From Malacoraja senta (taxonomy: Eukaryota), in the NCBI GenBank assembly GCA_038087875.1, contig CM075994.1:9240001-9304000 (forward strand): a DNA stretch of 64,000 bases. Direction: 5' to 3'. Shown piece after piece: positions 273 to 63,425 of the stretch. Made by a program: the position numbers and the translations under genes. The number at the start of each line of letters is the position of its first letter. The stretch's first letter is position 1. Under the pieces are notes generated by a model. That model worked only from the letters and a program-made list of their open reading frames with translations. It had not been told where the DNA came from and searched no databases.

Positions 273-380
273 CAACCTCTGCAACCCCAAGGTAGCATTG
301 CAGCCCCCAACGGCAGTTAACAGTTTTACCCACGCATTTTTCCGTTGATGCTAAGCAGGAGAAACACCGCAAACAGTTAC
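273..380 (-). CDS. Ly6/uPAR-family gene A, exon 2 (GNCLRCFSCLASTEKCVGKTVNCRWGLQCYLGVAEV); terminal exon lies beyond the left window edge
   Basis: 108-bp phase 1-1 exon bounded by a cAG acceptor and GTAAG donor; LxCxxC...C...C...C three-finger N-terminal pattern; paralogs at 40788 and 63318. Confidence 0.85.
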
Positions 381-1448
381 CTGTACATTGAGAACAAAAC
401 AGAGGAGGTTGTGTGAGAGACACCTGCAGCTCGTTCTGCCGCTGCTCTGAAAACGAGCAACTCCTTTCAATAAACATAGAGCAGTACCAACACAAAATGC
501 TGGAGTAACTCAGCGGGTCAGGCAGCCGCTCTGGAGAAGAGGTACAGGTGATGTTTTGGTCGAGACCCTCCCAAATGCCAACTGTTGTACTGGTTTGAAA
601 GTCGTCTTGTTGAATCTCATTATCTGTAACTCGTTCTCACCTCGCCCACTGCTAACAATGGCCTGTTTCCTTTATCATCTTTTCCTTTTTGCATATCTTT
701 CATTCATTTGTTCAATATCTCTCGATATCACTGCCTATCTCTCGTTTCCCTTTCCCCTGACTCTCAGTCTTGAAGAAGGGTCTCGACCTGAAACTTTTTC
801 AGGTCGAGACCCTTATTCCTTCTCTCCAGATATGCTGCCTGTCCCGCTGAGTTACTCCAGATATTTGTGTTTATTTTTGGTGTAAACCAACATCTGCAGT
901 TCCTTCCTACACCTCAGTGCTGTAGAGCCCTCTGATGTTTACATCATGTAAACAGGCCATTCGGCCCACCGAGTCCGCGCCGACCAGTGATCACCCTGTA
1001 CACTAACACTATCCTACACACTGACAAAGTAGTATCTAATCTTAGATACTAAGATTAGATACTTACAGTTACAGTTTTCCTTTTTGTACTATTATTGTTT
1101 GTTTCATATGTGTGTGTGTGTCTGTGAGTGTGTGTGGCAAGGAACTGCAGATGCTGGTTTACACCGAAGATAGACATAAAATGCTGGAGTAACTCAGCGG
1201 GACAGGCAGCATCTCTGGAGAGAAGGAAGAAGGGTCTCGACTTGAAACGTCACCATTCCTTCTATCTGGGACATCTAACAATAAAACACTCTTGACTTGA
1301 CAATAACTAACTCCATATTCAGTTACAAACTCTCTATGTGAATGAACACACAAGCTAAATGTTTAACCAAGAATTCCAATCCCACTTGAGAATCTAAAAT
1401 GCCTTTCCACAGTTAAACTAGAGAACAACAATAGTTATATTTCCTTAC

Positions 1449-1500
1449 CCGGAGAGGCACTGAGAATGAGACCAGCCACCAGGACCACAAGGCAATTCAT
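1449..1500 (-). CDS. Ly6/uPAR-family gene A, first coding exon (signal peptide MNCLVVLVAGLILSASP-G)
   Basis: ATG at 1500-1498 in aagATG context, 52 bp hydrophobic signal peptide, phase-1 GTAAG donor at 1448-1444; near-identical to the exon at 42102-42153. Confidence 0.85.
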
Positions 1501-1935
1501 CTTTGGATTTGAACAGCTGAGCTTCGAAGGCAAGCGAGAGAACAGGAAAAACTTCAAACAGAAGTCTTCAAATTCCCTGAAATCTGTAGAAGGATCCCAA
1601 CTGGAAACGTCACCAGTCCGTGTTCGCCAGAGATGCTGCCCGACTCACCGAGTTACACCAGCACTCTGAGCCTTTATTGAAAATCCCTTGTGATTTTGAC
1701 AATGGGATGGTGTGATAGAGGTTGGGGGTGGAGGCAAGGAAAAGATCGAATTACTGATGATTACATGATAGAGAAAACCTGAATTACTGGAAGAGATGAG
1801 AATGGGACGAGATTTACGAAAGAGATACGTGCGAAATGCAAAAAATCCCAAATCAGTCATCTGTGGAGAGAAGGAATCAAGGAAGTTGATACAAGGAACT
1901 GCTGGTGCTGGTAACGAACATCCTCCCCACAAAGC

Positions 1936-2130
1936 TCCGGAGTAACTCAGGTGGTCAGGCAACATCTCTAGAGCAACTCAGGTGGTCAGGCATCATCTCT
2001 GGAGTAACTCAGGTGATCAGGCAACATCTCTGGAGTAACTCAGGTGGTCAGGTAACATCTGTGGAGTAACTCAGGTGGTCAGGTAACATCTGTGGAGTAA
2101 CTCAGGTGGTCAGGCAATATCTCTGGAGAA
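1936..2130. repeat. ~31-bp tandem array (GGAGTAACTCAGGTGGTCAGGCAACATCTCT)
   Basis: About 6 adjacent copies of a Penelope-terminus subsegment; related ~58-bp arrays at 42965-43170 and 19820-19980. Confidence 0.85.
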
Positions 2131-2259
2131 CGTAGAGTGGTGATGTTTCCGGTCAGGTCCCTTCTCCAGATTTTAGGGGATGTGGCGGTAGATTTGTTGC
2201 AGATCCTGCTTTTTCCCCAAATCCCTTGAATCCGTTAGCCCCAATAGCTAAATCTAACT

Positions 2260-2445
2260 GTTAAAGAAGGAACTGCAGATGCTGGAAAATCGAAGGTACA
2301 TAAAAATGCTGGAGAAACTCAGCGGGTGCAGCAGCATCTATGGAGCGAAGGAAATAGGCAACGTTTCGGGCCGAAACGTTGCCTATTTCCTTCGCTCCAT
2401 AGATGCTGCTGCACCCGCTGAGTTTCTCCAGCATTTTTGTGTACC
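2260..2445. mobile_element. Fold-back Penelope-derived mini-element with 14-bp TSD
   Basis: ~75-bp near-perfect inverted arms centred near 2370; TSD AGCTAAATCTAACT at 2246-2259 and 2446-2459; arms match the Penelope 3' end at 60725-60840. Confidence 0.85.
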
Positions 2446-15235: not shown

Positions 15236-15252
15236 ACATCAGTGTTTCTGTG

Positions 15253-16004: not shown

Positions 16005-16027
16005 GTAGGTGCACCAACAACAACTTA

Positions 16028-22784: not shown

Positions 22785-24156
22785 TGCTTGATTGAAGTGA
22801 CCACGAGTTTCAGTTTGCACATTCTGTCCCGACGGATAAGTCAAGTTTATTTGTCACATACACATACAAGATGTGCAGTGAAATGAAAGTGGCAATGATA
22901 GAAGGTAGACAACAATGCTGGAGAAACTCAGCGGGACAGGCAGCATCTCTGGAGAGAAGGAACGGATCGAGACCCTTCTTCAGACTGAGAGTCAGGGGAG
23001 AAGGAGACAGAGATAAGGAAGTTAGACAAAAATGCTGGAGAGACTCAGCGTGTGAGGCAGCATCTATAGAGCGAAGGAATAGGTGACGTTTCGGGTCGAG
23101 ACCCTTCAGACTGATGTGGGGGTGGGGGTGGGGGTGGGAAGAAGAAAGGAAGAGGCGGAGACAGTGGGCTGTGGGAGAGCTGGGAAGGGGGGGGGAAGGA
23201 GGGAGAAAGCAGGGACTACCTGAAATTGGAGAAGTCAGTGTTCATACAGCTGGGGTGTAAACTACCCAAGCGAAATATGAGGAGCTGCTCCTCCAATTTG
23301 CGTTGGGACTCACTCTGGCCATGGAGGAGGCCCAGGACAGAAAGGTCAGATTGGGAATGGGAGAGGGAGTTGCTGTGCTGAGCCACCGGGAGATCAGGTT
23401 GGTTAATGCGTCACTTATTCCTTCGCTCCATAGATGCTGCCTCACCCGCTGAGTTTCTCCAGCATTTTTGTCTACCTTCGATTTTTCCAGCATTTCCATT
23501 CTTTCTTAAACGTGGCAATAATAGGGACCGCTGTTAAAAGTTGCTGAGGGTCTATCACCAACTCTGCTCTAGGCTTTTCCTCACAGCAGTTTGCTACGGA
23601 GCCAAAATGAAGAGACGGACACGGAAGCGCAATGGGCGGCAGGGTGGCGCAGCGGCAGAGATGCTGCCTTACAGCGCTTGCAGCGCCGGACACCCGTGGT
23701 CAGGATGGAACCCGGGTCTCTGGCACCGCGGGGCATCAACTCTACCGCTGCACCACCGTGCAGTTTATAAAATTGTTTTCCAGAATTTGATAGAGGCTTT
23801 GACAGATTCTTCATTAGTACAAGTGTCAGGGGTTATGGGGAGAATGTGGTTGAGAGGGAAAGATAGATCGGCCATGATTGAAGGGCCGAGTAGGCTTGAT
23901 GGGCCGAATGGCTTAATCCTGCTCCTGGAACATAAAAAAAGGAATATGCTCACATATTTTTTGAAAATCAGTATTTTATTGAGATGCAGCAACAGATGTA
24001 CAGAGTCATGGTACAAACTCCAAGTTATATGATTATTATTATTATCCAAATTATTATAAGATTGCAAGTATCAAGTATGGTGTATTAGGCAATAGACAAT
24101 AGGTGCAGGAGTAGGCTATTCGGCACTTCGAGCCAGCACCGCCATTCAATGTGATC

Positions 24157-26105
24157 ATATAAACATATAACAATTACAGCATGGAAACAGGCCATCTCGG
24201 CCCTTCTAGTTCGTGTCGAATACTTACTCTCACCTAGTCCCATCTACCTGCACTCAGACCATAACCCTCCATTCGTTTCCCGTCCATATACCTATCCAAT
24301 TATTATTAGATAAAAACTAACCTGCCTCCACCACTTCCACTGGAAGCTCATTCCACACAGCTACCACTCTCTGAGAAAACAAGTTTCCCCTCATGTTGCC
24401 CCTAAACTTTTGTCCCTTAATTCTCAAATCATGTCCTCTTGTTTGAATCTTCCCTACTCTCAATGGGAAAAGCTTATTCACGTCAACTCTGTCTATCACT
24501 CTCATAATTTTAAAGACCTCTATCAAGTCCCCCCTTAACCTTCTGCGCTCCAAAGAATAAACACCTATCTTGTTGAACCTTTCTCTGTAACTTAGGTGCT
24601 GAAACCCAGGCAACATTCTAGTAAATCTCCTCTGTACTCTCTCTATTTTGTTGACATCCTTCCTATAATTAGGCGACCAAAATTGTACTCCATACTCCAG
24701 AATTGGCCTCACCAATGCCTTGTACAATTTTAACATTACATCCCAACTTCTATACTCAATGCTCTGATTTATAAAGGCCAGCACACCAAAAGCTCTCTTT
24801 ACCACCCTATCTACATGAGATTCCACCTTCAGGGAACTATGCACAGTTATTCCAAGATCCGTCTGTTCAACTGCATTCCTCAATTCACTACCATTTACCA
24901 TGTACGTCCTATTTTGATTTGTTCTGCCAAGATGTAACACCTCACACTTATCAGCATTAAACTGCATCTGCCATCTTTCAGCCCGCTCTTCCAAATGGCC
25001 TAAATCTCTCTGTAGACTTTGAAAATCTACTTCATTATCCACAACACCACCTATCTTAGTATCATCTGCATACTTACTAATCCAATTTACCACAGCATCA
25101 TCCAGATCAATGATGTATATGACAAACAACAGTGGACCCAACACAGATCCCCGAGGCACCCCACTAGTCACCGGCCTCCAACCTGACAAACAGTTATCCA
25201 CCATGACTCTCTGGTATCTCCCATTCAGCCACTGTTGAATCCATCTTGCTACTCCACTATTAATACCCAACAATTGAACCTTCTTAACCAACCTTCCATG
25301 TGGAACCTTGTCAAAGGCCTTACTGAAGTCCATATAGACAACATCCACTGCTTTCCCCTCATCAATTTCCCTAGTAACCTCTTCATAAAATTCAAGAAGA
25401 TTAGTCAAACATGACCTTCCAGGCACAAATCCATGTTGACTGTTCCTAATCAGACCCTGTTTATCCAGATGATTATATATCTTATCTCTAAGTATCCTTT
25501 CCATTAATTTGCCCACACTGATGTCAAACTAACAGGTCTATAATTGCTAGGTTTACTCTTAGAACCCTTTTTAAACAATGGAACAACATGCGCCGTACGC
25601 CAATCCTCCGGCACTATTCCCGTTTCTAATGACATTTGAAATATTTCTGCCATAGCCCCTGCTATTTCTACACTAACTTCCCTCAATGTCCTAGGAATTT
25701 TCTGTCAGGACCTGGAGATTTATCCACTTTTATATTTTTCAAAAGTGTCAGTACTTCCTCTTCTTTGATCCTCAGTTTCCATAGCTACCCTACTTGTTTC
25801 CCTTAGCTCACATAATTCAATATCCTTCTCCTTGGTGAATACCGAAGAAAAGACATTGTTCAATATCTCCCCCATCTCTTTTAGCTCTGCAGATAGCTGT
25901 CCACTCTGACTCTCTAATGGACCAATTTTATCCCTCGTTATCCTTTTGCTATTAATATAGCTGTAGAAACCCTTTGGATTTACTTTCACCCTACTTGCCA
26001 AAGCAACCTCATATCTTCTTTTAGCTTTCCTAATTTCTTTCTTAAGATTCTTTTTACATTCTTTATACTCCTCAAGCACCTCATTTACTCCATGCTGCTT
26101 ATAAT
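24157..26105 (-). mobile_element. 5'-truncated CR1 LINE in the Ly6 3' region (copy 1 of 3)
   Basis: RT ORFs 24317-25516 etc. with YADD; absent from the homologous gene C region near 61453. Confidence 0.88.
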
Positions 26106-26503
26106 TATGTCTGATCATCCCCAATCAGTACCCCATTCCAGCCTTCTTCCCATATACACTGACTCCTCTATCTAGCTCTCCCTTGAAAGTATTGGCATTG
26201 CCTTCGTCAACTTGAAGGAGGTTGTCCATGCACTGCCATCATAACATGCTTGTCTAGCCCCCTGAGATAAACAGTATTATAAGGTCATGCAGTAGGTGAT
26301 AGGAGAAGAACAAGGCCATTCGGCCCATCAAGTCTACTCCGCCATTCAATCATGGCTGATCTATCTCTCCCTCCTAACCCCATTCTCCTGCCTTCTCCAC
26401 ATAACCCCTGACACCCGCCCTAATCAAGAATCTATCTATCTCTGTGGTAAAAATATCAATTCACTTGGCCTCCCCAGCCTTCTGTTGGAGTTACTGAAGA
26501 TGT

Positions 26504-29500
26504 AAAAGGGGCAAAAACAGAAAGGAAGGGTAGTAAAAATCATCTGAAAGTGCTGTATCTAAATGCACGGAGTATTCGAAATAAGATAAATGAATTAATG
26601 GTGCAATTAAGTATATATAGTTATGATATCGTGGCCATTACGGAGACATGGCTGCAAGGGGATCAGGATTGGGAGTTAAATATAGAGGGGTACTCGACAA
26701 TTAGAAAAGATAGACAGGAAAGAAAGGGAGGAGGGGTGGCCCTTTTAATAAGGGAGGGAATAACGGCAATAGAGAGGAAGGATATTGCGTTGAAGGATCA
26801 GGATAGTGAAACAGCTTGGGTACAGATAGAGAATAACAAGGGGAAAAAAACACTAGTGGGTGTAATTTATAGACCTCCAAATAGCTGTGACGCTGTTAGT
26901 CAGAACATAAATCTGCAAATAGTTGACGCATGTAAAAAGGGAACTGCTGTAATCATGGGGGACTTCAATTTTCATATTAATTGGGCAAACCAAACTGGGC
27001 AGGGTAGACTAGAGGAAGAGTTTATAGAATGTATTAGAGACGGGTTCCTAGAACAGTATGTCACAGAACCGACAAGGGGGGAGGCAATCTTGGATCTGGT
27101 CCTGTGTAATGAAGCAGGATTAATTAAAAATGTCATAGTTAGGGACTCGTTGGGAACAAGTGACCACAATATGGTCGAATTCCATATTCAAATAGAAGGG
27201 GAGCAGGTTGAAACTCAGGCTAGGGTACTTAGTCTAAATAAGGGGGATTATGAAGGTATGAGGACTGAGCTGATCAAAGTTGACTGGGATAGCAGACTCA
27301 AGAATAGGACGGTACATGAGCAGTGGTGTACGTTTAAGGATCTACTGTATAACCTTCAAGAAAAATTTATTCCTATGAAGAGAAAAAGGGGTAAGGGAAA
27401 GAACAGTCAGCCATGGCTCAGTAAAACTATAAAGGATAGTATTCGGCTGAAGGCAAGGGCATATAAGGTAGCCAGAGATAGTGGGAGGGCAGAGGATTGG
27501 GAAGCATTTAAAGGTCAGCAAAAAATAACTAAGAGCTTAATTAAGACGGGGAAAATAGACTATGAAAGGAATTTAGCGAACAACATAAAAACTAATAGTA
27601 AGAGTTTTTATAGCTATATAAAAAGAAAAAGGGTGGCTAAGGTGAACGTTGGTCCATTGGAGGGTGAGACTGGAGAGTTGTTGGTGGGGAACATGGAAAT
27701 GGCAAAGGCATTAAACGAGTATTTTGTATCAGTCTTCACCATAGAAGACACAAAAAATATTCCAACGCTGGATAAACAGGGGGCGGTAGGAATGGAGGAG
27801 CTAAATACTATTAAGATCACCAAGGAGGTGGTATTAGGGAAATTAATGAGACTGAAGGAGGATAAATCCCCTGGGCCTGATGGATTACATCCAAGGGTCT
27901 TGAGGGAGATAGCGGTGGGGATTGTGGATGCATTGGTGATAATTTTCCAAAACTCCCTGGAGGCAGGAACGGTCCCAGTGGATTGGAAAATGGCCAATGT
28001 AACACCTATATTTAAAAAAGGAAGTAAACAGAAGGCGGGTAACTATAGACCGGTTAGTCTAACATCGGTGGTGGGTAAAATGTTAGAGACAATTATTAAA
28101 GAAACACTAACGGGGCACTTGGATAAACATGACTTCATCGGACAGAACCAGCATGGTTTTGTGAAGGGGAAGTCCTGTTTAACGAATCTGCTCGAATTCT
28201 TTGAGGAAGTAACAACCCGGGTGGATAAAGGGGAACCGGTGGATGTGGTATACTTGGACTTCCAAAAGGCTTTTGACAAGGTGCCACATAAGAGACTATT
28301 GCTAAAAATAAAAAATTATGGGATTGGGGGTAATATATTAGCATGGGTAGAGGATTGGCTAACAAATAGGAAGCAGAGAGTGGGGATAAATGGTTCATAC
28401 TCGGGATGGCAACCGGTAACTAGCGGGGTTCCGCAAGGGTCGGTGCTGGGACCCCAGTTGTTCACAATTTATATAAATGATTTGGAGGAGGGAACCAAGT
28501 GTAATATATCAAAATTTGCGGACGATACAAAAATGGGAGGAAAAGTAGGGGATGAGGAGGATAGGAAGAGTCTGCAAAAGGATATAGATAAGCTAGGTGA
28601 GTGGGCAACAACTTGGCAGATGAAATTTAATACTAATAAATGTGAAGTCATTCACTTTGGGAAAAAAAATGATAGGGCAAGTTATTTTCTAAATGAGGTG
28701 GAGCTGCGTTGTAATGCAACGCAAAGGGATCTAGGGGTAGTAGTACATGAATCACTAAAAGTTAGTATGCAGGTGCAGCAAGCAATCAGGAAGGCCAATG
28801 GAGTTTTGGCCTTTATTGCTAGGGGGATTGAGTATAAAAACACGGAGGTCTTGCTGCAGCTGTACACAGTATTAGTGAGACCACATTTGGAATACTGTGT
28901 ACAGTTCTGGGGTCCATACTTAAGAAAGGATGTACTGGCCCTGGAGGCAGTGCAGCGAAGGTTTACAAGATTAATTCCTGCAATGAGGGGATTGACATAT
29001 GAGGAAAGGTTAAGTAGGCTGGAACTCTACTCTTTGGAGTTTAGAAGAATGAGAGGCGATCTCATTGAAACATATAAGATCGTGAGGGGCCTTGATCGGG
29101 TGGATGCACCGAGGATGTTCCCAATGATCGGGGAAACTAGAACTAGGGGACATAGTTGTAGAATAAGAGGGGGCTCTTTTAAAACTGAGATGAGGAAGAA
29201 CTTCTTCACCCAGAGGGTGGTTAATTTATGGAATTCACTGCCCCAGGGAGCAGTGGAAGCAGAAACATTAAATATATTTAAGTCTAAAATAGATGGTTTT
29301 TTAGCTGCCAAGGGGATAAGGGGCTACGGGGAGAGGGCAGGGATATGGACCTAGGTATGGTTAGTATAGTAAGACCTGAGTGATCTCCTGGACAAGTGTC
29401 GATCGCCTGGATTGGGGTCGGAGAGGAATTTCCCGGATTTTTTTCCCGAATTGGACCTGGGTTTTTATCCGGTTTTTTGCCTCCCCCAGGAGATCACGCG

Positions 29501-29684
29501 GTTCTTCGGGTGGAGAGGGGTGATAGCGATATAAAGGGGAGGGTAGTGTCTTGTGTTCTGTGTCTTGTGTCTACTGTTTGTGGGTAAGGGTGTCTGTTTA
29601 GTGTTCAGCCATGAGCGAATGGCGGTGCGGGCTCGATGGGCCTGGTGGTCTACTCTCGCACCTACTTTCTATGTTTCTATGTTT
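26504..29684 (+). mobile_element. Young 5'-truncated CR1-clade LINE with uninterrupted endonuclease-RT ORF
   Basis: Carries ORF 26550-29354 and a (TTTCTATG)n tail; empty sites visible in sister duplicates near 34197 and 38550. Confidence 0.93.
26550..29354 (+). CDS. CR1 ORF2 (APE endonuclease plus reverse transcriptase), 934 aa
   Basis: YLNARS, ITETWL, GDFN, SDHN (APE); DFQKAFD, GVPQGSVLGP, FADD (RT); no internal stop. Confidence 0.9.
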   Translation: MLYLNARSIRNKINELMVQLSIYSYDIVAITETWLQGDQDWELNIEGYSTIRKDRQERKGGGVALLIREGITAIERKDIALKDQDSETAWVQIENNKGKKTLVGVIYRPPNSCDAVSQNINLQIVDACKKGTAVIMGDFNFHINWANQTGQGRLEEEFIECIRDGFLEQYVTEPTRGEAILDLVLCNEAGLIKNVIVRDSLGTSDHNMVEFHIQIEGEQVETQARVLSLNKGDYEGMRTELIKVDWDSRLKNRTVHEQWCTFKDLLYNLQEKFIPMKRKRGKGKNSQPWLSKTIKDSIRLKARAYKVARDSGRAEDWEAFKGQQKITKSLIKTGKIDYERNLANNIKTNSKSFYSYIKRKRVAKVNVGPLEGETGELLVGNMEMAKALNEYFVSVFTIEDTKNIPTLDKQGAVGMEELNTIKITKEVVLGKLMRLKEDKSPGPDGLHPRVLREIAVGIVDALVIIFQNSLEAGTVPVDWKMANVTPIFKKGSKQKAGNYRPVSLTSVVGKMLETIIKETLTGHLDKHDFIGQNQHGFVKGKSCLTNLLEFFEEVTTRVDKGEPVDVVYLDFQKAFDKVPHKRLLLKIKNYGIGGNILAWVEDWLTNRKQRVGINGSYSGWQPVTSGVPQGSVLGPQLFTIYINDLEEGTKCNISKFADDTKMGGKVGDEEDRKSLQKDIDKLGEWATTWQMKFNTNKCEVIHFGKKNDRASYFLNEVELRCNATQRDLGVVVHESLKVSMQVQQAIRKANGVLAFIARGIEYKNTEVLLQLYTVLVRPHLEYCVQFWGPYLRKDVLALEAVQRRFTRLIPAMRGLTYEERLSRLELYSLEFRRMRGDLIETYKIVRGLDRVDAPRMFPMIGETRTRGHSCRIRGGSFKTEMRKNFFTQRVVNLWNSLPQGAVEAETLNIFKSKIDGFLAAKGIRGYGERAGIWT

Positions 29685-29965
29685 ATATATATATGTAACC
29701 AGCTCCAAAACATAATTCAAATCAATAACAAATAAAAAAGTACATTGGAAGATTGAGGAATTACAGAACCCATAGAACTAACCACCATCGATGAACTAAT
29801 CCTGAACCTGGATGAGGGTTACTGATTTTGAAATGAAAAGGATTTGCACATCTGTTAGATTAAGTTGCTCATCTCTTGGAAATCAAGTGTTAAGACTCAT
29901 TATCCCTGATCTTCAGACAAAAAGCACCCAGAAGATTGCACTGTCATTATTATTATGCACTTGCT

Positions 29966-30153
29966 TCACATAAATATTGCAAACCAGACTGAGACCAGAG
30001 CAGGGAACAGCAGAAGAGATAATTTAACTTGGTCACTCGCGTTGCAGAGGTCAGTATCACAACAGTGGATAGAGACCAGGGCTCCTCCGATATTTTGCTG
30101 GACATTACAAAGAGCAGGGAGAATACATGCGGCTTCGTAAAACGTTAAATTTC
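29966..30153 (-). CDS. Duplicated Ly6 terminal exon (copy 3; TGA stop)
   Basis: 188-bp copy with intact acceptor and frame; no private exon 1 or 2. Confidence 0.7.
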
Positions 30154-33803: not shown

Positions 33804-34477
33804 TGGCTGATCATCCCCAATCAGTACCCCATTCCAGCCTTCTTCCCATATACACTGACTCCTCTATCTAGCTCTCCCTTGAAAGTATTGGCATTGCCTT
33901 CGTCAACTTGAAGGAGGTTGTCCATGCACTGCCATCATAACATGCTTGTCTAGCCCCCTGAGATAAACAGTATTATAAGGTCATGCAGTAGGTGATAGGA
34001 GAAGAACAAGGCCATTCGGCCCATCAAGTCTACTCCGCCATTCAATCATGGCTGATCTATCTCTCCCTCCTAACCCCATTCTCCTGCCTTCTCCACATAA
34101 CCCCTGACACCCGCCCTAATCAAGAATCTATCTATCTCTGCGGTAAAAATATCAATTCACTTGGCCTCCCCAGCCTTCTGTTGGAGTTACTGAAGGTGTA
34201 TATATATGTAACCAGCTCCAAAACATAATTCAAATCAATAACAAATAAAAAAGTACATTGGAAGATTGAGGAATTACAGAACCCATAGAACTAACCACCA
34301 TCGATGAACTAATCCTGAACCTGGATGAGGGTTACTGATTTTGAAATGAAAAGGATTTGCACATCTATTAGATTAAGTTGCTCATTTCTTGGAAATCAAG
34401 TGTTAACTCATTATCCCTGATCTTCAGACAAAAAGCACCCAGAAGATTGCACTGTGCATTATTATTATGCACTTGCT

Positions 34478-34665
34478 TTACATAAATATTGCAAACCAGA
34501 CTGAGACCAGAGCAGGGAACAGCAGAAGAGATAATTTAACTTGGTCACTCGCGTTGCAGAGGTCAGTATCACAACAGTGGATAGAGACCAGGGCTCCTCC
34601 GATATTTTGCTGGACATTACAAAGAGCAGGGAGAATACATGCGGCTTCGTAAAACGTTAAATTTC
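34478..34665 (-). CDS. Duplicated Ly6 terminal exon (copy 2; ...CNVQQNIGGALVSIHCCDTDLCN...FM*, TAA stop)
   Basis: 188-bp copy of exon 38833-39020 with intact ttttccAG acceptor and open frame; no private exon 1 or 2. Confidence 0.7.
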
Positions 34666-36189
34666 CTGGAAAAACAGAATGGATAGTTAAATAATTTCTG
34701 TGTTTATAGTTCACGAGACCAAGTGGGACCCGTTGGGTCTCATCCCCTCTACGCGTGGTTGCAGTGACACACACACACTAACCACCCCCACACACACACT
34801 AACCACCCCCACACACACACTAACCACCCCCCACACACACGCACTAACCACCCCGCACACACACACTAACCACCCCCCACACACACACTAACCACCCCCC
34901 ACACACACACTAACCACCCCCCACACACACACTATACACCCCCCACACACACACTAACCAACACCCACTAACCACCCCCACACTATACACTCCCCAAACA
35001 CACACACACACTAACCACCCCCCACACATACACTAACCACCCCCACACACACTATACACCCCCCACACACACTAACCAACCAGCCCCCCACACACTAACA
35101 ACCCCCATTGATTTTATATTAATATTATTCATACATTACTTTTACTCCATCCCCCACCCTATCCACTCATGTATAGCCCCCAACTCACAGGCACGGCTCG
35201 AGAGAGGGGGGCAGACAGAGAGGGACACAGAAGCACAGCGAGGGACACAGAGGCAGAGGGAGGGACACAGAGGCAGAGGGTGGGAGGGGGAGAGGGGGGG
35301 CAAGAGGGAGTGTGAGGGGGCAGAGAGGGAGCAGGGGGGCAGAGAGGGAGGGGTGTAGTGTTTGAGGGCTGGGGGGGGGGGCTGTGGGAGAGCTGGGAAG
35401 GGGAGGGGAAGGAGGGAGAAAGCAGGGACTACCTGAAATTGGAGAAGTCAGTGTTCATACCGCTGGGGTGTAAACTACCCAAGCGAAATATGAGGTGCTG
35501 CTCCTCCAATTTTCGGTGGCACTCACTCTGGCGTTAGAGGAGGCCCAGGACAGAAAGGTCAGATTGGGAATGGGAGGGGGAGTTGAAGTGCTGAGCCACC
35601 GGGAGATCAGGTTGGTTAATGCGTCACTTATTCCTTCGCTCCATAGATACTGCCTCACCCGCTGAGTTTCTCCAGCATTTTTGTCTACCTTCGATTTTTC
35701 CAGCATTTCGATTCTTTCTTAAACGTGGCAATAATAGGGACCGCTGTTAAAAGTTGCTGAGGGTCTATCACCAACTCTGCTCTAGGCTTTTCCTCACAGC
35801 AGTTTGCTCACACCAGAATTTGATGGAGGCTTTGACAGATTCTTCATTAGTACAAGTGTCAGGGGTTATGGGGAGAATGGGGTTGAGAGGGAAAGATAGA
35901 TCGGCCATGATTGAAGGGCCGAGTAGGCTTGATGGGCCGAATGGCTTAATCCTGCTCCTGGAACATAAAAAAAGGAATATGCTCACATATTTTTTGAAAA
36001 TCAGTATTTTATTGAGATGCAGCAACAGATGTACAGAGTCATGGTACAAACTCCAAGTTATATGATTATTATTATTATCCAAATTATTATAAGGTTGCAA
36101 GTATCAAGTATGGTGTATTAGGCAATAGACAATAGGTGCAGGAGAAGGCTATTCGGCACTTCGAGCCAGCACCGCCATTCAATGTGATC

Positions 36190-38141
36190 ATATAAACATA
36201 TAACAATTACAGCATGGAAACAGGCCATCTCGGCCCTTCTAGTTCGTGCCGAATACTTACTCTCACCTAGTCCCATCTACCTGCACTCAGACCATAACCC
36301 TCCATTCGTTTCCCGTCCATATACCTATCCAATTATTATTAGATAAAAACGAACCTGCCTCCACCACTTCCACTGGAAGCTCATTCCACACAGCTACCAC
36401 TCTCTGAGAAAACAAGTTTCCCCTCATGTTGTCCCTAAACCTTTGTCCCTTAATTCTCAAATCATGTCCTCGTGTTTGAATCTTCCCTACTCTCAATGGG
36501 AAAAGCTTATTCACGTCAAATCTGTCTATCACTCTCATAATTTTAAAGACCTCTATCAAGTCCCCCCTTAACCTTCTGCGCTCCAAAGAATAAACACCTA
36601 TCTTGTTGAACCTTTCTCTGTAACTTAGGTGCTGACACCCAGGCAACATTCTAGTAAATCTCCTCTGTACTCTCTCTATTTTGTTGACATCCTTCCTATA
36701 ATTAGGCGACCAAAATTGTACTCCATACTCCAGAATTGGCCTCACCAATGCCTTGAAGAATTTTAACATTACATCCCAACTTCTATACTCAATGCTCTGA
36801 TTTATAAATGCCAGCACACCAAAAGCTCTCTTTACCACCCTATCTACATGAGATTCCACCTTCAGGGAACTATGCACAGTTATTCCAAGATCCGTCTGTT
36901 CAACTGCATTCCTCAATTCGCTACCATTTACCATGTACGTCCTATTTTGATTTGTTCTGCCAAGATGTAGCACCTCACACTTATCAGCATTAAACTGCAT
37001 CTGCCATCTTTCAGCCCGCTCTTCCAAATGGCCTAAATCTCTCTGTAGACTTTGAAAATCTACTTCATTATCCACAACACCACATATCTTAGTATCATCT
37101 GCATACTTACTAATCCAATTTACCACACCATCATCCAGATCAATGATGTATATGACAAACAACAGTGGACCCAACACAGATCCCCGAGGCACCCCACTAG
37201 TCACCGGCCTCCAACCTGACAAACAGTTATCCACCATGACTCTCTGGTATCTCCCATTCAGCCACTGTTGAATCCATCTTGCTACTCCACTATTAATACC
37301 CAACAATTGAACCTTCTTAACCAACCTTCCATGTGGAACCTTGTCAAAGGCCTTACTGAAGTCCATATAGACAACATCCACTGCTTTCCCCTCATCAATT
37401 TCCCTAGTAACCTCTTCATAAAATTCAAGAAGATTAGTCAAACATGACCTTCCAGGCACAAATCCATGTTGACTGTTCCTAATCAGACCCTGTTTATCCA
37501 GATGATTATATATCTTATCTCTAAGTATCCTTTCCATTAATTTGCCCACCACTGATGTCAAACTAACAGGTCTATAATTGCTAGGTTTACTCTTAGAACC
37601 CTTTTTAAACAATGGAACAACATGCGCCGTACGCCAATCCTCCGGCACTATTCCCGTTTCTAATGACATTTGAAATATTTCTGTCATAGCCCCTGCTATT
37701 TCTACACTAACTTCCCTCAATGTCCTAGGAATTTTCTGTCAGGACCTGGAGACTTATCCACGTTTATATTTTTCAAAAGTGTCAATACTTCCTCTTCTTT
37801 GATCCTCAGTTTCCATAGCTACCCTACTTGTTTCCCTTACCTCACATAATTCAATATCCTTCTCCTTGGTGAATACCGAAGGAAAGACATTGTTCAATAT
37901 CTCCCCCATCTCTTTTAGCTCTGCAGATAGCTGTCCACTCTGACTCTCTAATGGACCAATTTTATCCCTCGTTATCCTTTTGCTATTAATATAGCTGTAG
38001 AAACCCTTTGGATTTACTTTCATTTTACTTGCCAAAGCAACCTCATATCTTCTTTTAGCTTTCCTAATTTCTTTCTTAAGATTCTTTTTACATTCTTTAT
38101 ACTCCTCAAGCACCTCATTTACTCCATGCTACTTATAATTA
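36190..38141 (-). mobile_element. 5'-truncated CR1 LINE (copy 3 of 3)
   Basis: RT ORF 36287-37720. Confidence 0.88.
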
Positions 38142-38832
38142 TGGCTGATCATCCCCAATCAGTACCCCATTCCAGCCTTCTTCCCATATACACTGACTCC
38201 TCTATCTTTAGGAGCCCTATCTAGCTCTCCCTTGAAAGTATTGGCATTGCCTTCGTCAACTTGAAGGAGGTTGTCCATGCGCTGCCATCATAACATGCTT
38301 GTCTAGCCCCCTGAGATAAACAGTATTATAAGGTCATGCAGTAGGTGATAGGAGAAGAACAAGGCCATTCGGCCCATCAAGTCTACTCCGCCATTCAATC
38401 ATGGCTGATCTATCTCTCCCTCCTAACCCCATTCTCCTGCCTTCTCCACATAACCCCTGACACCCGCCCTAATCAAGAATCTATCTATCTCTGCGGTAAA
38501 AATATCAATTCACTTGGCCTCCACAGCCTTCTGTTGGAGTTACTGAAGCTGTATATATATGTAACCAGCTCCAAAACATAATTCAAATCAATAACAAATA
38601 AAAAAAGTACATTGGAAGATTGAGGAATTACAGAACCCATAGAACTAACCACCATCGATGAACTAATCCTGAACCTGGATGAGGGTTACTGATTTTGAAA
38701 TGAAAAGGATTTGCACATCTGTTAGATTAAGTTGCTCATCTCTTGGAAATCAAGTGTTAAGACTCATTATCCCTGATCTTCAGACAAAAAGCACCCAGAA
38801 GATTGCACTGTCATTATTATTATGCACTTGCT

Positions 38833-41800
38833 TCACATAAATATTGCAAACCAGACTGAGACCAGAGCAGGGAACAGCAGAAGAGATAATTTAACTTGGT
38901 CACTCGCGTTGCAGAGGTCAGTATCACAACAGTGGATAGAGACCAGGGCTCCTCCGATATTTTGCTGGAAATTACAAAGAGCAGGGAGAATACATGCGGC
39001 TTCGTAAAACGTTAAATTTCCTGGAAAAACAGAATGGATAGTTTAATTTCTGTGTTTATAGTTCACGAGACCAAGTGGGACCCGTTGGGTCTCATCCCCT
39101 CTACGCGTGGTTGCAGTGACACACACACACTAACCACCCCCACACACACACTAACCACCCCCCACACACACACACTAACCACCCCGCACACACACACTAA
39201 CCACCCCCCACACACACACTAACCACCCCCCACACACACACTAACCACCCCCCACACACACACTATACACCCCCCACACACACACTAACCAACACCCACA
39301 CTAACCACCCCCACACTATACACTCCCCAAACACACACACACTAACCACCCCCCACACATACACTAACCACCCCCACACACACTATACACCCCCCACACA
39401 CACTAACCAACCAGCCCCCCACTCACTAACAACCCCATTGATTTTATATTAATATTATTCATACATTACTTTTACTCCATCCCCCACCCTATCCACTCAT
39501 GTATAGCCCCCAACTCGCAGGCACGGCTCGAGAGAGGGGGGCAGACAGAGAGGGACACAGAAGCACAGAGAGGGACACAGAGGCAGAGGGAGGGACACAG
39601 AGGCAGAGGGTGGGAGGGGGAGAGGGGGGGGCAAGAGGGAGTGTGAGGGGGCAGAGAGGGAGCAGGGGGCAGAGAGGGAGCAGGGGGGCAGAGAGGGAGG
39701 GGTGTAGTGTTTGAGGGCTGGGAGGGGGGGGGGTGGGGCGTCATCACGGGGGAGGGTTGGTTCCCGAACTAAATACTCCTTCGCTTCCGGCTGCAAAACG
39801 CACCCGTCCCCAACCCAGTTGTCCCCACGGGAGGCATGTGGGGGGGGGTGGGGGGGCAGAGAGGGAGCGTGAGGGGGGCAGAGAGGGAGGGGGGTAGAGT
39901 TTGAGGGGTGTGGGCGCATCGTCAGAGGGGAAGGCTGGTTCCCGAACCTCGCTCCCGGCTTCAGGCTGCAGGTTGGGTGAGGTTCCTCGCAGCGTGAGAA
40001 AGAAGACAGCGGGGTTTTTATCAAAAGTTTGTCGGCAGCGACGGACTGGACGGGACCCGAGAGCTCTAGGACAGGGCCCAACTTGCTCGCTCTTCACTCG
40101 CTGCGTGTGCCGCTGTCTTCAGCGATGATCTTTGGTCTTCAGTCAACAGGGTGACATTTAATCAATGGGGGAGGAGGGAGGGGCAGGAGGAGACGTCACT
40201 CTTTTATAGTTAGAAGGATGAATCATTTTAGAGTGACACAGTGCAGATACAGGCCCTTTGGCCCAACTTGCCCACACCGGCCAACATGTCCCAGCTACAT
40301 TAGTCCCACCTGCCTGCGCTTGGTCCACATCCCTCCAAACTTGTCCGATCAATGTACATGTGCCTTAAACGTTGCGATAGTCCTTGCCTCAACTACCTCC
40401 TCTGGCAGCTTGTTCCATACACCCACCACCCTTTGTGTGAATGCCACTGAGTTTTCACATTCCTATGAGTAAATCAGCTATTTATTCACAGCATCGTACA
40501 GTCTTAACATCTTTACGAGGATGTTGCCAGGACTACAGGGTGTGAGCTATAGGGAGAGGCTGAGCAGGCTGGGTGTCTATTCCTTGGAGCGCAGGAGGAT
40601 GAGAGTTGATCCTATAGAGGTGTATAAAATCACGAGAGGTATAGATCGGGTAGACGCACAGAGCCTCCTGCCCAGAGTAGGGGAATCGAGGACCAGAGGA
40701 CATAGGTTTAAGGTGAAGGGCAAAAAATGTAATAGGAATCTGTATCTCTAAACTAGAGATGTGCATCTCAAATTGGTTCATACTTACCAGCCTCTGCAAC
40801 CCCAAGGTAACATTGCATGCCCCCAGGGCAGTTAACAGTATTATCCACGCACCTTTCCTGTGATACTAAGCAGTAGTAACACTGCAAACAGTTACCTGTA
40901 CATTGAGAACAAAACAGAGGAGGTTGTGTGAGAGACACCTGCAGCTCGTTCTGCTGCTGCTCTGAGCACGAACAACTCCTTTCACTAAACATAGAACAAT
41001 ACCGACACCAAATGCTGGAGTAACTCAGCGGGTCAGGCAACCGCTCTGGAGAAGAGGTACAGGTGATGTTTTGGTCGAGACCCTCCCAAATCCCAGCTGG
41101 TTGTACTGGTTTGATGAAACAGTCTGAAGAAGGGTTTCGGCCAGAAACGTTGCCTATTTCCATGGCTCCATAGATGCTGACCTACCCGCTGAGTTTCTCC
41201 AGCAATTTTGTCTACCGTACTGGTTTGAAAGACGTCTTCTCGAGTCTCATTCTCTGTAACTCGTTCTCACCGCGCCCACAGCTACCAATGGCCTGTTTCC
41301 TTTTATCATCTTTTCCTTTTTGCATATCTTTCATTCATTTGTTGAATATCTCTCGATATCACTGTCTATCTCTCTCGCTTCCCTTTCGCTTGACTCTCAG
41401 TCTGAAGAAGGGCCTCGACCCATAACGTCACCCATTCCTTCTCTCCAGAGATGCTGCCTGTCCCGCTGAGTTACTCAAGCACTTTGTGTCCATTTTTGGA
41501 GTAATCCAACATCTGCAGTTCCTTCCTACACCTAAGTGCTGTAGAGCCCTCTGATGTTTACAGCATGTAAAGAGGCCATTCGGCCCACCGAGTCCGTGCG
41601 GACCAGTGATCACCCCGTACACTGACACTATCCTACACACTGCCGAAGTAGTATCTAAACTACCTATACACGTATAGTTTTGCCTTTTTGCACTATTATT
41701 GTTTGGTTCATGTGTACATATGTGTGTGTGTGTGATTGTGTGCGTGTGCGTGTTCGTGTGTGTGAGTGTGTGGGTGTGAGTGTGTGTGGCAAGGAACTGC

Positions 41801-42153
41801 AGATGGTGGTTTACACTGAAGATGGACATAAAATGCTGGAGTAACTCAGCGGGACAGGCAGCATCTCTGGAGAGATGGAAGGGTCTCGACCTGAAACGTC
41901 ACCATTCCTTCTATCTGGGACATATAAAAATAAAACACTCTGGACCTGACAATAACTAACTCCATATTCAGTAACAAACTCTCTACATGTGAACGAACAC
42001 ACAGCTTAATGTTTAACCAAGAATTCCAATCCCACTTGAGAATCTAAAATGCCTTTCCACAGTTAAACTAGAGGACAAGAACAATAGTTATATTTCCTTA
42101 CCCGGAGAGGCACTAAGAATGAGACCAGCTACCAGGACCACAAGGTAATTCAT
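38833..42153 (-). CDS. Complete Ly6/uPAR (three-finger) GPI-anchored protein gene B, 115 aa; exons 42153-42102, 40895-40788, 39020-38833
   Basis: Spliced product MNYLVVLVAGLILSASPG NCLQCYYCLVSQERCVDNTVNCPGGMQCYLGVAEAG NLTFYEAACILPALCNFQQNIGGALVSIHCCDTDLCN ASDQVKLSLLLFPALVSVWFAIFM*: signal peptide, 10-Cys LU domain ending CCxxxxCN, hydrophobic GPI-type tail; GT-AG phase-1 introns; 52+108+188=348 bp. Confidence 0.9.
39066..40218 (-). mobile_element. Non-autonomous Helitron in intron 2 of Ly6 gene B (partial copies near 30202-30863 and 34714-35381)
   Basis: Minus-strand 5' TC and 3' hairpin plus CTCG; A|T target; empty site in gene C near 62379 (gttca|tgtatcatttt); internal (CA)-rich minisatellite. 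Confidence 0.8.
41115..41216 (+). mobile_element. ~100-bp Penelope-derived insertion containing a hammerhead-like motif
   Basis: TSD GTACTGGTTTGA at 41103-41114 and 41217-41228; empty sites in paralogs near 586 and 63633. Confidence 0.85.
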
Positions 42154-50765: not shown

Positions 50766-51084
50766 TCCAGAAAAAGTGCCTATCCACTGAAATTGCACTC
50801 ATATTTTTTTAACGAGTCCCTTTGGCCCATCATGCCTGTACTAGCCCAGGCGCTGTTCCTTCGGCCCATCAGAAAGTAATCCCCCTGCAAGTATTAAACC
50901 TCACCCCAGTATTTTTCTCCCTGCCTTCATTGGCTCCCTGTGAGATCCAGGCCAGGATTGAAGTTCCTCTTTCATTGCTGTGATCTGCAAAAAAAGATGA
51001 AAAATGTCTAAAATTGATTCTCCGCCGTCTCCCCTTTCTCTCTCACATAGTCTCTCACCTGTTTTGGAGAATTTCTGGCAGTTT

Positions 51085-51280
51085 CTGAGCTGCCACCCCA
51101 CCAGCCCTGAGTGACTGAGCTGCCAGCCCACCAGCCCTGAGTGACTGAGCTGCCAGCCCACCAGGCCTGAGTGACTGAGCTGCCAGCCCACCAGGCCTGA
51201 GTGACTGAGCTGCCAGCCCACCAGCCCTGAGTGACTGAGCTGCCAGCCCACCAGCCCTGAGTGACTGAGCTGCCAGCCCA
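51085..51280. repeat. 30-bp minisatellite (TGCCAGCCCACCAGCCCTGAGTGACTGAGC); second array at 53525-53750
   Basis: 6-7 near-perfect copies per array. Confidence 0.9.
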
Positions 51281-51585
51281 AGTATCCATTCGGCCCACAA
51301 TCTCCATACTAGCCCTCTGAAGTAGTTGTACAAACAAAGAGATGAACATTCCATGTTCTCCTTATTCTCATATAAATTGTAACTTTCAGTTCTCTCCGAT
51401 ATGATGAGAACTGTGTACTCTCCACCTCCTATGCCTGGTCTGAGTCCCTGCCCCCCCAAGCCCAAATGTCACCCCCTCTATCATCAAATGACTGCCCCCA
51501 AAATAATATAATATGCCAACAGTGGCCTAAATATAAATGGCTCCTACAGTATTTTTGTGGTCCTGTGACTGGATTTTAGGTGTAA

Positions 51586-60705: not shown

Positions 60706-60745
60706 TCAGTCTGAAGAAGGGTTTCGCCCCGAAACGTTGCCTATT
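60706..60745 (+). ncRNA. Minimal type I hammerhead-ribozyme-like motif in the Penelope 3' terminus
   Basis: CUGAAGA, short stem-loop II, GAAAC-GUH; many copies, e.g. near 41122, 43831, 63816. Confidence 0.55.
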
Positions 60746-61264: not shown

Positions 61265-61270
61265 TTTTAT
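61265..61270 (-). terminator. Candidate polyadenylation signal for Ly6 gene C (homologous sites near 23975, 31671, 36008)
   Basis: AATAAA on the minus strand ~870 bp past the stop codon, conserved in all duplicated 3' regions. Confidence 0.4.
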
Positions 61271-62143
61271 TGAGATGCGGCAACAGATGAACAGAGTAAT
61301 GGTACACACTCCAAATTATATGATTATTATTATTATTACTATCCAAACTATTAAAAGATTGCAAATATCAAGCATGGTGAATTAGACAATAGACAATAGG
61401 AGCAGGAGTAGGCCATTCGGCCCTTCGAGCCAGCAACGCCACTCAATGTGATCATGGCTGATCATCCCCAATCAGTACCCCGTTCCTGCCTACTCCCCAT
61501 ATCCCCTGACTCCGCTATCTTTAGGAGCCCTATCTAGCTCTCTTGAAAGTATTGACATTGCCTTTGTCAACTCGAAGGAGGTTGTCCATGCACTGCCATC
61601 GTAACATGCTTGTCTAGCCTCCTGAGATAAACAGTCTTATAAGGTCATGCAGTAGGTGATAGGAGCAGAACTAGGCCATTCGGCCCATCAAATCTACTCC
61701 GCCATTCAATCATGGCTGATCTATCTCTCCCTCCTAACCCCATTCTCCTGCCTTCTCCCCATAACCCCTGACACCCGTCCTAATCAAGAATCTATCTATC
61801 TCTGCGGTAAAAATATCAATTCACTTGGCCTCCACAACATTCTGTTGGAGTTACTGAAGCTGTGTATATATGTAACCAGCTCCAAAACATAATTCAAATC
61901 AATAACAAAGAAAAAAGCACATTGGAAGATTGAGGAATTACAGAACCCATAGAACTAACCACCATCGATGAACTAATCCTGAACCTGGATGAGGGTTACT
62001 GATTTTGGAATGAAAATAATTTGCACATCTGTTAGATTAAGTTGCTCATCTCTTGGAAATCAAGTGTTAAGACCCATTATCCCTGATCTTCAGACAAAAA
62101 GCACCCAGAAGATTGCACTGTGCATTATTATTATGCACTTGCT

Positions 62144-62331
62144 TCACATAAATATTGCAAACCAGACTGAGACCAGAGCAGGGAACAGCAGAAGAGATAA
62201 TTTAACTTGGTCACTCGCGTTGCAGAGGTCAGTATCACAACAGCTGACAGAGACTGTGGCTCCTGGGATAATTTGCGGGACATTACATTCAGCAGGGGAG
62301 GCACATCCAGCGCCATAAGCCTTTACACCAG
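62144..62331 (-). CDS. Ly6/uPAR-family gene C, terminal exon (AGVKAYGAGCASPAECNVPQIIPGATVSVSCCDTDLCNASDQVKLSLLLFPALVSVWFAIFM*)
   Basis: 188-bp exon, ttttccAG acceptor, CCxxxxCN motif, GPI-type tail, TGA stop. Confidence 0.88.
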
Positions 62332-62726
62332 CTGGAAAAACAGAATGGTCAGATAAATAATTTCTATATTCATAGTTCATGTATCATTTTAGAGTATTAC
62401 AGCGTGGAAACAGGCCCTTCACCCCAACTTGCCCACACCGGCCAACATGTCCCAGCAACACTAGTCCCACCTGCCAGCGCTTGGTCCATATCCCCCAAAC
62501 CTGTCCGATCCATGTACCTGTCTAACTGTTTCTTAAACGTTGTGATAGTCCCTGCCTCAACTACCTCCTCTGGCAGCTTGTTCCATACACCCACCACCCT
62601 GTGTGTGAATGCCACTGAGTTTTCACATTTCTATGAGTAAATCAGCTATTTATTCACAGAATCGCACAGTCTTAACATCTTTACGAGGATGTTGCCAGGA
62701 CTAGAGGGTGTGAGCTATAGGGAGAG

Positions 62727-63034
62727 TCGTCAAGTCACATTTATTTATATAGCACATTTAAAAAACAACTCTCGTTGGCCAAAGTGCTTTACATTTGTTA
62801 TAAGAATAGAATAAACAAGCAAACTACATACATATAGCCCTCGCTCAGAGGACGTCAAGAAAGGCTTGGGAGTATAGATAAGTTTTTAGTCTTGACTTAA
62901 AGGAGTCGATGGAGGGGGCAGTTCTGATGGGAAAGGGGTTGCTGTTCCACAGTCCAGGAGCTGCAACCGCAAAGGCGCGGTCGCCCCTGAGCTTATGCCT
63001 AGACCGCGGGATATTCAGCAACCCCAAGTCGGCC
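62727..63034 (-). mobile_element. L2-clade LINE 3' fragment in intron 2 of Ly6 gene C
   Basis: GDRAFAVAAPGLWN...FKSRLKTYL C-terminus; absent at the homologous site near 40557; short GAGAG duplication. Confidence 0.75.
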
Positions 63035-63317
63035 GAGAGGTTGAGCAGGCTGGGTCTCTATTCCTTGGAGCACAGGAGGATGAGGGGTGATCCTATAGAG
63101 GTGTATAAAATCATGACAGGAATAGATTGGGAAGATGCACAGAGTCTCTTGCCCAGAGTAGGGGAATCGAGGACCAGAGGACATTGGTTTAAGGTGAGGG
63201 GGAAAAGATTTAAAAGGAATCTGAGGGGTAACCTTTTCACACAAACGGTGGTGGGTGTATGTTTCCACGCTGTATCTCTAAACTAGAGGTGTGCATCTCA
63301 AATTCTTTCGTACTTAC

Positions 63318-63425
63318 CAGCCTCTGCTACCACAAGGAAGCATCGCTGCCCCGCAGAGCAGTTAATAGTTTTATCCACACATCTTTCCGTTGATCCTGAG
63401 CAGGAGTAACACTGCAAACAGTTAC
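63318..63425 (-). CDS. Ly6/uPAR-family gene C, exon 2 (GNCLQCYSCSGSTERCVDKTINCSAGQRCFLVVAEA); exon 1 lies beyond the right edge
   Basis: 108-bp exon with AG/GTAAG boundaries, paralogous to 273-380 and 40788-40895. Confidence 0.87.

Follow-up and report, generated by a model that had tools for sequence, protein, structure and literature searches.

Three minus-strand Ly6/LU genes, which we call A, B and C, lie wholly or partly within a 64,000-nucleotide stretch of the genome of the skate Malacoraja senta (contig CM075994.1, here C18, positions 9,240,001 to 9,304,000; hereafter the window). They belong to a cluster of 12 paralogues located beside the casein kinase II beta gene (CSNK2B), in what appears to be the class III block of the shark and ray major histocompatibility complex (MHC), and their LU domains appear to be under strong positive selection. 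We propose, with a probability of roughly 0.55, that this is a skate-expanded cluster of single-domain Ly6 genes, whose predicted glycosylphosphatidylinositol (GPI)-anchored LU domains would bind or distract fast-evolving microbes or parasites at the cell surface, in an arms race between the two sides.

Gene plan and divergence between copies

Genes were found by six-frame motif scans, self-alignment and direct reading of the window. They follow a common plan, with a 52-nucleotide signal-peptide exon, a 108-nucleotide exon and a 188-nucleotide terminal exon joined at AG/GT junctions in phase 1 (Table 1). A division into signal, first LU half, and second LU half with GPI signal is given as the defining plan of Ly6/uPAR genes in the available portion of one source (PMC4839075). 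Only gene B is entire within the window, the terminal exon of A and the signal exon of C falling just beyond its edges. An earlier note made from the letters of the window alone (the original prediction) had placed exon 2 of A and C and the terminal exons of B and C, and all of these positions match ours. It had also described near-identical flanks around fast-changing exons, and its counts stood: 17 of the first 30 residues of the terminal exon differ between B and C, with a synonymous-only change at 2 codons exactly as claimed, the 24 codons after the last LU residue carry no nucleotide differences, and a single one of 20 signal-peptide residues separates A from B. The signal regions of B and C are likewise free of nucleotide differences. 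Exon 2, described there as variable between fixed cysteines, differs at 12-14 of 33 residues per pair, with every cysteine kept.

For the analysis of selection we used the 10 genes of the cluster that have a full LU domain, leaving out genes J and L and the spare terminal exons B2 and B3, removing one inserted codon of gene H and masking the frameshifted tail of gene E. Mean protein identity among these 10 paralogues is 0.92 in the signal peptide, 0.51 in the LU domain (range 0.35-0.90) and 0.98 in the tail. All 10 cysteine columns are invariant in 10/10 paralogues, as are core positions, and the proteins have the ten-cysteine pattern and C-terminal CCxxxxCN motif of single-LU Ly6/uPAR proteins. 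A GPI-type C-terminal layout (small residues, spacer, hydrophobic end, no cytoplasmic tail) is present in nine of the ten, only gene E being without it.

Positive selection on the LU domain

Divergence in the LU domain at codon positions 1, 2 and 3 is 0.29, 0.32 and 0.20. By Nei-Gojobori counting, the proportion of nonsynonymous differences (pN) exceeds that of synonymous differences (pS) in 45/45 paralogue pairs, which are not independent of one another (pooled 0.293 vs 0.197). In the tail, pN is 0.012 vs a pS of 0.109, which indicates purifying selection there. Codon models were GY94/F3x4 site models that we wrote ourselves, not codeml, applied to 10 sequences, with naive empirical Bayes for the assignment of sites. 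The ratio of nonsynonymous to synonymous rates, omega, was 2.0 overall under M0 (p = 5e-5 vs omega of 1). Twice the log-likelihood difference (2dL) was 56-57 for M2a vs M1a and for M8 vs M7 or M8a (p about 1e-13), with some 46% of sites at omega 4.4-4.6. The signal was found in each exon on its own tree (exon 2, p = 5e-5; exon 3, p = 2.5e-7), and 2dL was still 46 when double and triple mutations were allowed.

The diversifying selection that the original prediction had proposed, with M7 vs M8 as the suggested comparison, is therefore supported by omega above 1 in the LU domain. Its description of the variable sites as hypervariable loops fared less well: the domain is indeed hypervariable, but the 21 sites with a naive posterior above 0.9 for omega above 1 comprise 11 of 36 non-cysteine strand positions and 10 of 25 non-strand positions, and the excess of amino-acid-changing differences is distributed across all three fingers. 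Since selected sites occur on strands and off strands alike, "hypervariable surface" is the better description. From these comparisons of sequence, positive selection on the LU domain appears to be the main cause of the contrast between exons and flanks.

Probable exchange between copies and the likeness of the flanks

Alignable non-coding DNA between paralogues shows 0.069 differences per site (tree length 0.36), and the flanks are about 93% alike between copies. The LU exons exceed this level of divergence, so that exon-faster-than-intron change, the pattern originally noticed, holds across the cluster. The pattern is not confined to sites that change the protein. At four-fold sites of the LU exons, 95 of 689 comparisons differ (0.138), vs 0.069 in the flanks, and the neutral-equivalent tree length is 0.88 for the LU exons vs 0.36 for the flanks. 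Forcing the value of 0.36 on the LU exons is rejected (p = 6e-7), and thus amino-acid selection alone cannot account for the whole contrast. Synonymous divergence in the LU domain is about 2-2.4 times that of the flanks, and omega climbs to about 9 if the flanks represent the true neutral rate. Non-coding divergence itself varies from <0.03 to 0.2 between windows of the alignment, which makes this neutral yardstick a loose one.

Other features of the cluster point to mixing between copies. Two mutually exclusive 3' ends occur, one with AATAAA about 250 bases past the stop codon (D, E, F, G, H) and one without it (A, B, C, I, K). A tree in which this split forms a clade is rejected by the intron data (approximately unbiased (AU) test, p = 0.005), not by the LU data alone (p = 0.09), and trees from different gene regions conflict. 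By inspection, protein P0003 of the skate Leucoraja resembles a divergent exon 2 joined to a C-type exon 3, and all nine Rhinoraja proteins in the tree have common signal and tail residues of their own. The signal and tail residues of the Malacoraja family are of the Leucoraja/Amblyraja type. Exchange between copies is thus a probable contributor to the likeness of the flanks. The original prediction had taken variable exons between near-identical flanks as a sign of diversifying selection; omega above 1 upholds that account in part, but the higher synonymous divergence of the LU exons and the mosaic 3' ends do not fit it as a full explanation.

Extent and state of the cluster

The 864 kb around the window were examined for family genes. 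With either the terminal exon or exon 2 as query, a whole-genome search matched 13/13 candidates, all on contig C18. The cluster comprises 12 genes over about 370 kb (C18 9.239-9.610 Mb), in both orientations, and nine of them (A, B, C, D, F, G, H, I and K) are intact with a GPI-type tail, in agreement with the prediction of a recently expanded Ly6/three-finger family. The remaining three are damaged to differing degrees. Gene E (C18:9435701-9435903) has kept its ten cysteines, but a one-base frameshift deletes the hydrophobic tail, and it may encode a secreted form or be a young pseudogene. In gene J, exon 2 is broken by a stop and a third exon was not found, an assembly gap following the gene, and the last exon of gene L is truncated. 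Orphan signal exons also occur. The first exons of D and E sit 12 and 28 kb from their second exons, and because of this spacing the pairings are provisional. Two matching signal exons (C18:9355385 and 9364193) stand on either side of an assembly gap; the gaps at 9363314 and 9579185, one of them after gene J, make gene counts in their vicinity uncertain.

Directly left of the cluster, three further terminal exons encode GPI-type tails and belong to more distant Ly6 genes (Table 1). Those at 9.2359 and 9.2175 Mb are 81% alike, and the one at 9.1901 Mb is unrelated to them at the DNA level. This last exon could belong to the lypc-like gene of shark and reedfish, which has the same place there, but a homologue search found nothing and the name lypc is not supported. 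In the 200 kb left of the cluster, which are mostly repeats, no non-Ly6 gene was recognisable. A whole-genome search with Pfam PF00021 gave 0 matches, and its control likewise gave 0.

Position in the MHC class III block

CSNK2B exons lie at C18:9.627-9.645 Mb and are the sole match to this gene in the genome. The cluster stands off the 3' end of CSNK2B, with its last gene about 17 kb away. Past CSNK2B follow, in order, an ankyrin-repeat gene, which by resemblance and position we take to be NFKBIL1-like, a TRAF gene with RING and MATH domains, ABHD16 and SAPCD. The TRAF neighbour (C18:9.686-9.701 Mb, minus strand) combines a RING with a MATH domain of TRAF1/2 type that is nearer to TRAF1 than to TRAF2 (83 vs 69 bits). 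Human TRAF1 is without a RING. On its domain sequence, we assign the gene as an MHC-linked TRAF1/2 paralogue. Its identification as TRAF6, which would put the cluster at the CD59 locus, was rejected on the same MATH match.

A comparable block is found in other vertebrates. In mammalian class III, ABHD16A lies near the Ly6 genes that follow CSNK2B. The parts available of two sources place LY6G5B directly downstream of CSNK2B in mammalian class III (PMC3626593, PMC4839075). In the portion available of the supplement to a study of the cartilaginous-fish MHC (PMC10751288), the sawfish MHC chromosome is listed with a SAPCD-like gene, abhd16a, a TRAF2-like gene in the same block, nfkbil1, csnk2b, a SPACA4-like Ly6 gene and clic1; the white shark MHC chromosome with abhd16a, an unnamed gene, nfkbil1, csnk2b, three unnamed genes, lypc and clic1; and the reedfish with csnk2b, a SPACA4-like gene, clic1 and lypc together. 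The available portion of the main text of that study (PMC10751288) makes no mention of Ly6, and the main text of a paper on the axolotl MHC mentions neither Ly6 nor the neighbour genes. Judged by gene order, the skate cluster occupies the mammalian LY6G5/G6 position in the shark and ray MHC class III block. One Ly6-named model in the sawfish interval, and lypc with three unnamed genes in white shark, make the expansion look skate-specific, though the shark and sawfish annotation may merge or miss copies.

Two side observations concern other parts of this neighbourhood and of the MHC. A family exon-2 fragment with its donor and following intron lies at C18:9751122-9751205, among ABHD16 exons and 140 kb from the cluster, and may be linked to an inversion of ABHD16. 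Across many small contigs there are dozens of near-identical exons of MHC class I alpha-2 type, which suggest a large class I expansion in the skate genome; on contig C2938, class I alpha-1 and alpha-2 matches share an open frame and are hardly, if at all, separated by an intron.

Homologues, fold and expression in related skates

Protein database searches returned 18 and then 22 matches; of the latter, 21 came from the skates Leucoraja, Amblyraja and Rhinoraja and one, a weak match, from a teleost, in keeping with the predicted cartilaginous-fish family. The search depends on shared five-residue words, and the absence of shark and ray matches is therefore weak evidence. These homologues, likewise expanded in the three skates, carry automatic names only, mostly PSCA-like or CD59-like, with two Rhinoraja copies named toxin-like. 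That the family is undescribed, as originally supposed, holds for the literature: no description of the skate family, its selection or its MHC position was found in full-text papers, a search in which subscription journals are largely outside coverage. It does not hold for the databases, which contain the genes of three skates under these automatic names. The teleost Ly6 protein P0027 (Colossoma, PSCA-like) has a spacer motif after the LU domain, QVKLSLL, in common with the skate tail, and this shared motif hints at an old common lineage.

All three full-length skate homologues tested score above the Pfam cut-offs for UPAR_LY6, Toxin_TOLIP and CD59; single exons of the window score under them. 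An AlphaFold2 model of the Leucoraja homologue P0001, of moderate confidence (predicted local distance difference test score 68), has an LU fold, with the LU domain of GPIHBP1 as its best match (E = 1.7e-4, root-mean-square deviation 1.8). By sequence, the best matches among solved structures are CD59 (E = 3.5e-8) and PSCA (E = 2.4e-6).

No RNA run contains the exact stretch of the window. In related skates, the junction of exon 3 to exon 2 is present in contigs from 3/3 contig runs compared with the terminal exon; these contigs leave the genome sequence of gene C at its acceptor (62332) and go on as exon-2 sequence. Two of the three contain several distinct paralogue contigs converging in the constant tail. 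The contig runs come from other skate species, are coded and without tissue labels, and were only guessed to be RNA, a guess that the intron-less junction supports. In a poly-A run, 17/17 reads have one orientation, that of minus-strand RNA under the usual stranded protocol, and many runs, belonging to several studies, have transcripts or partial matches. Splicing and co-expression of several paralogues are thus seen in related skates, where the expected expression of the family shows as transcription from one strand and joining of exons 2 and 3.

What the proteins might recognise

In the model that we favour, the genes would encode small surface proteins that share one export signal and one type of anchor, each presenting a three-finger surface of its own. 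Tandem duplication would supply the copies, with spent ones decaying (birth and death), and selection would drive the exposed LU surfaces apart. Occasional exchange between copies would keep the signal and anchor parts alike and might at times recombine halves, such that a single animal would show a panel of differently surfaced proteins on one anchor type. To sustain omega near 4.5 over half the domain, the partner has to be fast-changing as well. Given the MHC position of the genes, their copy number and their co-expression, we rank microbes or parasites first among the candidate partners, at slightly better than even odds, with the skate's own receptors and gametes behind them; location and analogy suggest an immune or antimicrobial partner. 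A bolder version, which we consider improbable, is that the cluster forms an MHC-linked, germline-diversified recognition repertoire in the class III Ly6 slot, with uniform cassettes, shuffled LU halves and spliced-in spare terminal exons. If true, variable receptors or self-markers would here be based on the three-finger fold instead of the immunoglobulin fold.

Several observations weigh against our interpretation. Site tests can be inflated by recombination, and ours come from non-codeml models of 10 sequences with naive empirical Bayes. In a Sawyer-type run test, none of the candidate conversion tracts reached global significance (best global p 0.052-0.2), which bears on the exchange between copies. 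In the neighbourhood, ABHD16 is inverted relative to shark and sawfish, none of 88 matches in a search for MHC class I falls on contig C18, most being on small contigs, and a search for CLIC gave 4 matches on 2 other contigs and none on C18, CLIC1 not being found there. The left boundary of the shark and ray block is therefore not confirmed here, and for linkage to the core MHC we rely on the tables for shark and sawfish. No LY6G5/G6 protein is among the sequence matches, which makes orthology to these genes positional only, and the available part of PMC6829570 describes conservation of the LY6 genes in the mammalian MHC.

Partners other than microbes and parasites have to be considered. The proteins might be variable self-markers or ligands of the skate's own immune receptors (e.g. 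NCR3/NKp30-like), co-evolving with those receptors and with pathogen mimics, an idea that we hold to be possible and rather unlikely. The class III position and the co-expression of several paralogues in one sample would suit it, as would the NCR3-like gene clusters within about 0.5 Mb of the same block that the available part of the sawfish supplement lists (PMC10751288); selection on half of all sites, however, suits any antagonistic partner equally. We would give no better chances to reproductive recognition proteins of the egg or sperm surface or of courtship secretion, like zebrafish Bouncer or the salamander plethodontid modulating factor (PMF). Bouncer is, in the portion of the source available, an egg Ly6 protein, SPACA4-like is the automatic name of the sawfish and reedfish genes at this position, and PMF, according to the accessible part of PMC8904931, combines the three-finger type with a coding region that changes very fast and untranslated regions (UTRs) about 98% conserved. 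The skate genes, however, are multicopy with three coding exons, and their matches in many runs of several studies would be unexpected for a gonad-only gene, although the tissues are not labelled. Bouncer and SPACA4 are single-copy, single-exon genes. More doubtful still is a role as complement inhibitors of CD59 type, diversifying under pressure from microbial toxins for which CD59 is the receptor. CD59 is the best solved structure by sequence and the best Pfam match for two of three full-length homologues, and it lends its name to some database copies, but the human CD59 tryptophan after the sixth cysteine (the active-site W40) aligns to a variable A/F/I/M column, and a lungfish table puts CD59 with TRAF6 on another chromosomal block, not beside CSNK2B. 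The complement interaction that the original prediction had offered, alongside pathogen and gamete partners, is accordingly disfavoured in its CD59-type form.

Two further accounts seem to us very unlikely. One dispenses with adaptive drive: the LU exons would be old or relaxed, the flanks homogenised by conversion, and omega inflated by recombination or a local excess of mutation. The greater neutral-equivalent tree length and four-fold divergence of the LU exons, the conflicting region trees and the mosaic 3' ends would be expected from such a history. However, within an exon, conversion or relaxation cannot lift omega above 1, and omega stays above 1 when each exon is given its own tree and when the model admits multi-base mutations; divergence is higher at second than at third codon positions, cysteines and core are invariant, and taking the neutral rate of the flanks would push omega further up. 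As the sole cause, this account is largely refuted. The other takes the proteins for toxin-like or neuromodulatory three-finger proteins, i.e. venom components or Lynx-type regulators of nicotinic receptors. They share the fold of snake three-finger toxins and the exon-faster-than-intron pattern, two Rhinoraja copies bear toxin-like names, and gene E might be secreted. On the other hand, the strongly conserved GPI-type tail retained in nine of the ten full-LU genes is absent from toxins, snake toxins come at rank 26 and below in the fold search, and Lynx-type modulators are conserved, not hypervariable.

Comparison with known systems

The fold, the gene plan and the pattern of fast exons in constant flanks are already known; what appears to be new is the selection on the skate family and its position in MHC class III. 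To our knowledge, the functions of mammalian LY6G5/G6 have remained largely unknown for two decades. The mammalian class III genes (LY6G5B, LY6G5C, LY6G6C/D/E/F) are likewise single-LU, three-exon genes downstream of CSNK2B, but they are few, old, divergent and conserved, whereas the skate has a dozen young copies with omega above 1. In the oldest jawed-vertebrate lineage the same slot holds a young family under strong diversifying selection, which suggests great age for the class III Ly6 slot and a capacity to be drawn into arms races.

Snake three-finger toxins have a three-exon plan, birth-and-death duplication and exons that change faster than introns, and they derive from a different Ly6 cluster. 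Their LU fold is that of the skate proteins, but toxins are secreted and have no GPI tail, and nothing in the skate locus points to venom. CD59 and PSCA match the skate proteins in size, cysteine pattern and GPI-type tail; they are, however, single-copy genes at other loci, and the database names PSCA-like and CD59-like reflect best matches, not orthology. In the rodent Ly6a/c/g/i genes, signal and tail are not known to be near-identical to the degree seen in the skate. These genes of mouse chromosome 15 are also a lineage-specific tandem expansion of GPI-anchored single-LU genes, as the available portion of PMC4839075 describes, but they lie at a different locus (the 8q24 counterpart). PMF, too, is a three-finger family of many copies, whose coding region is hypervariable and whose UTRs are near-constant in the part available of PMC8904931; it is a secreted courtship pheromone, unlike the skate proteins with their GPI-type tail, full ten-cysteine LU plan and MHC class III locus.

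The nine intact proteins form a testable set, since their anchors are nearly identical, their surfaces differ and 21 contact sites are predicted, and the locus is a clean case in which to separate positive selection from flank homogenisation in the exon-faster-than-intron pattern.

Spare terminal exons and other features of the window

The terminal exon of gene B is present three times in tandem, and the two further intact copies, B2 and B3, had been overlooked in the original prediction. Both are without an exon 1 or exon 2 of their own, and their protein differs from that of B by a single residue, located at a positively selected site.

Table 1. Positions of Ly6/LU exons and tandem units in the window and beside it (numbers without prefix count from the first letter of the window; C18, contig coordinates)
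Feature	Position	Strand
Gene A coding exon 1: signal peptide, 52 nt, phase-1 donor	1449..1500	-
Gene A exon 2: first half of LU domain, 5 LU cysteines	273..380	-
Gene A terminal exon: outside window, 378-565 bases left of it	C18:9239435-9239622	-
Gene B coding exon 1: signal peptide	42102..42153	-
Gene B exon 2: first half of LU domain	40788..40895	-
Gene B terminal exon: second LU half, CCxxxxCN, GPI-type hydrophobic tail, stop	38833..39020	-
B2, second copy of B terminal exon: acceptor and frame intact	34478..34665	-
B3, third copy of B terminal exon: acceptor and frame intact, protein identical to B2	29966..30153	-
Three tandem units, about 4.3-4.5 kb each, 97.5-98.6% alike, each with a B terminal exon	23166..39737	-
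Gene C signal exon: just right of window	window-equivalent 64533-64584	-
Gene C exon 2: first half of LU domain	63318..63425	-
Gene C terminal exon: second LU half and GPI-type tail	62144..62331	-
Distant Ly6 terminal exon	C18:9.2359 Mb	+
Distant Ly6 terminal exon	C18:9.2175 Mb	+
Distant Ly6 terminal exon	C18:9.1901 Mb	-

Each copy sits in its own tandem unit, and the third unit is interrupted by a 3.2-kb insertion (26505-29685) with a 906-residue open frame resembling a long interspersed nuclear element (LINE; endonuclease/reverse transcriptase-like). This insertion argues that the duplication is real, and differences of 1.4-2.5% between the units, indels among them and an insertion peculiar to one, make an assembly artefact unlikely. 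A fourth, partial unit was considered and rejected, the stretch in question being the distal part of unit 3 severed by the insertion. Neither AATAAA nor ATTAAA occurs within 2.5 kb past the stop of B (36300-38832) or B2 (32000-34477), and transcripts might therefore continue into the next tandem terminal exon.

A more decayed relative of the LINE-like insertion, 67% identical, lies at 56735-59452. Between genes B and C, a direct duplication of 1.6 kb (50650-52209 and 53087-54688), 95% alike, contains a 30-bp minisatellite.

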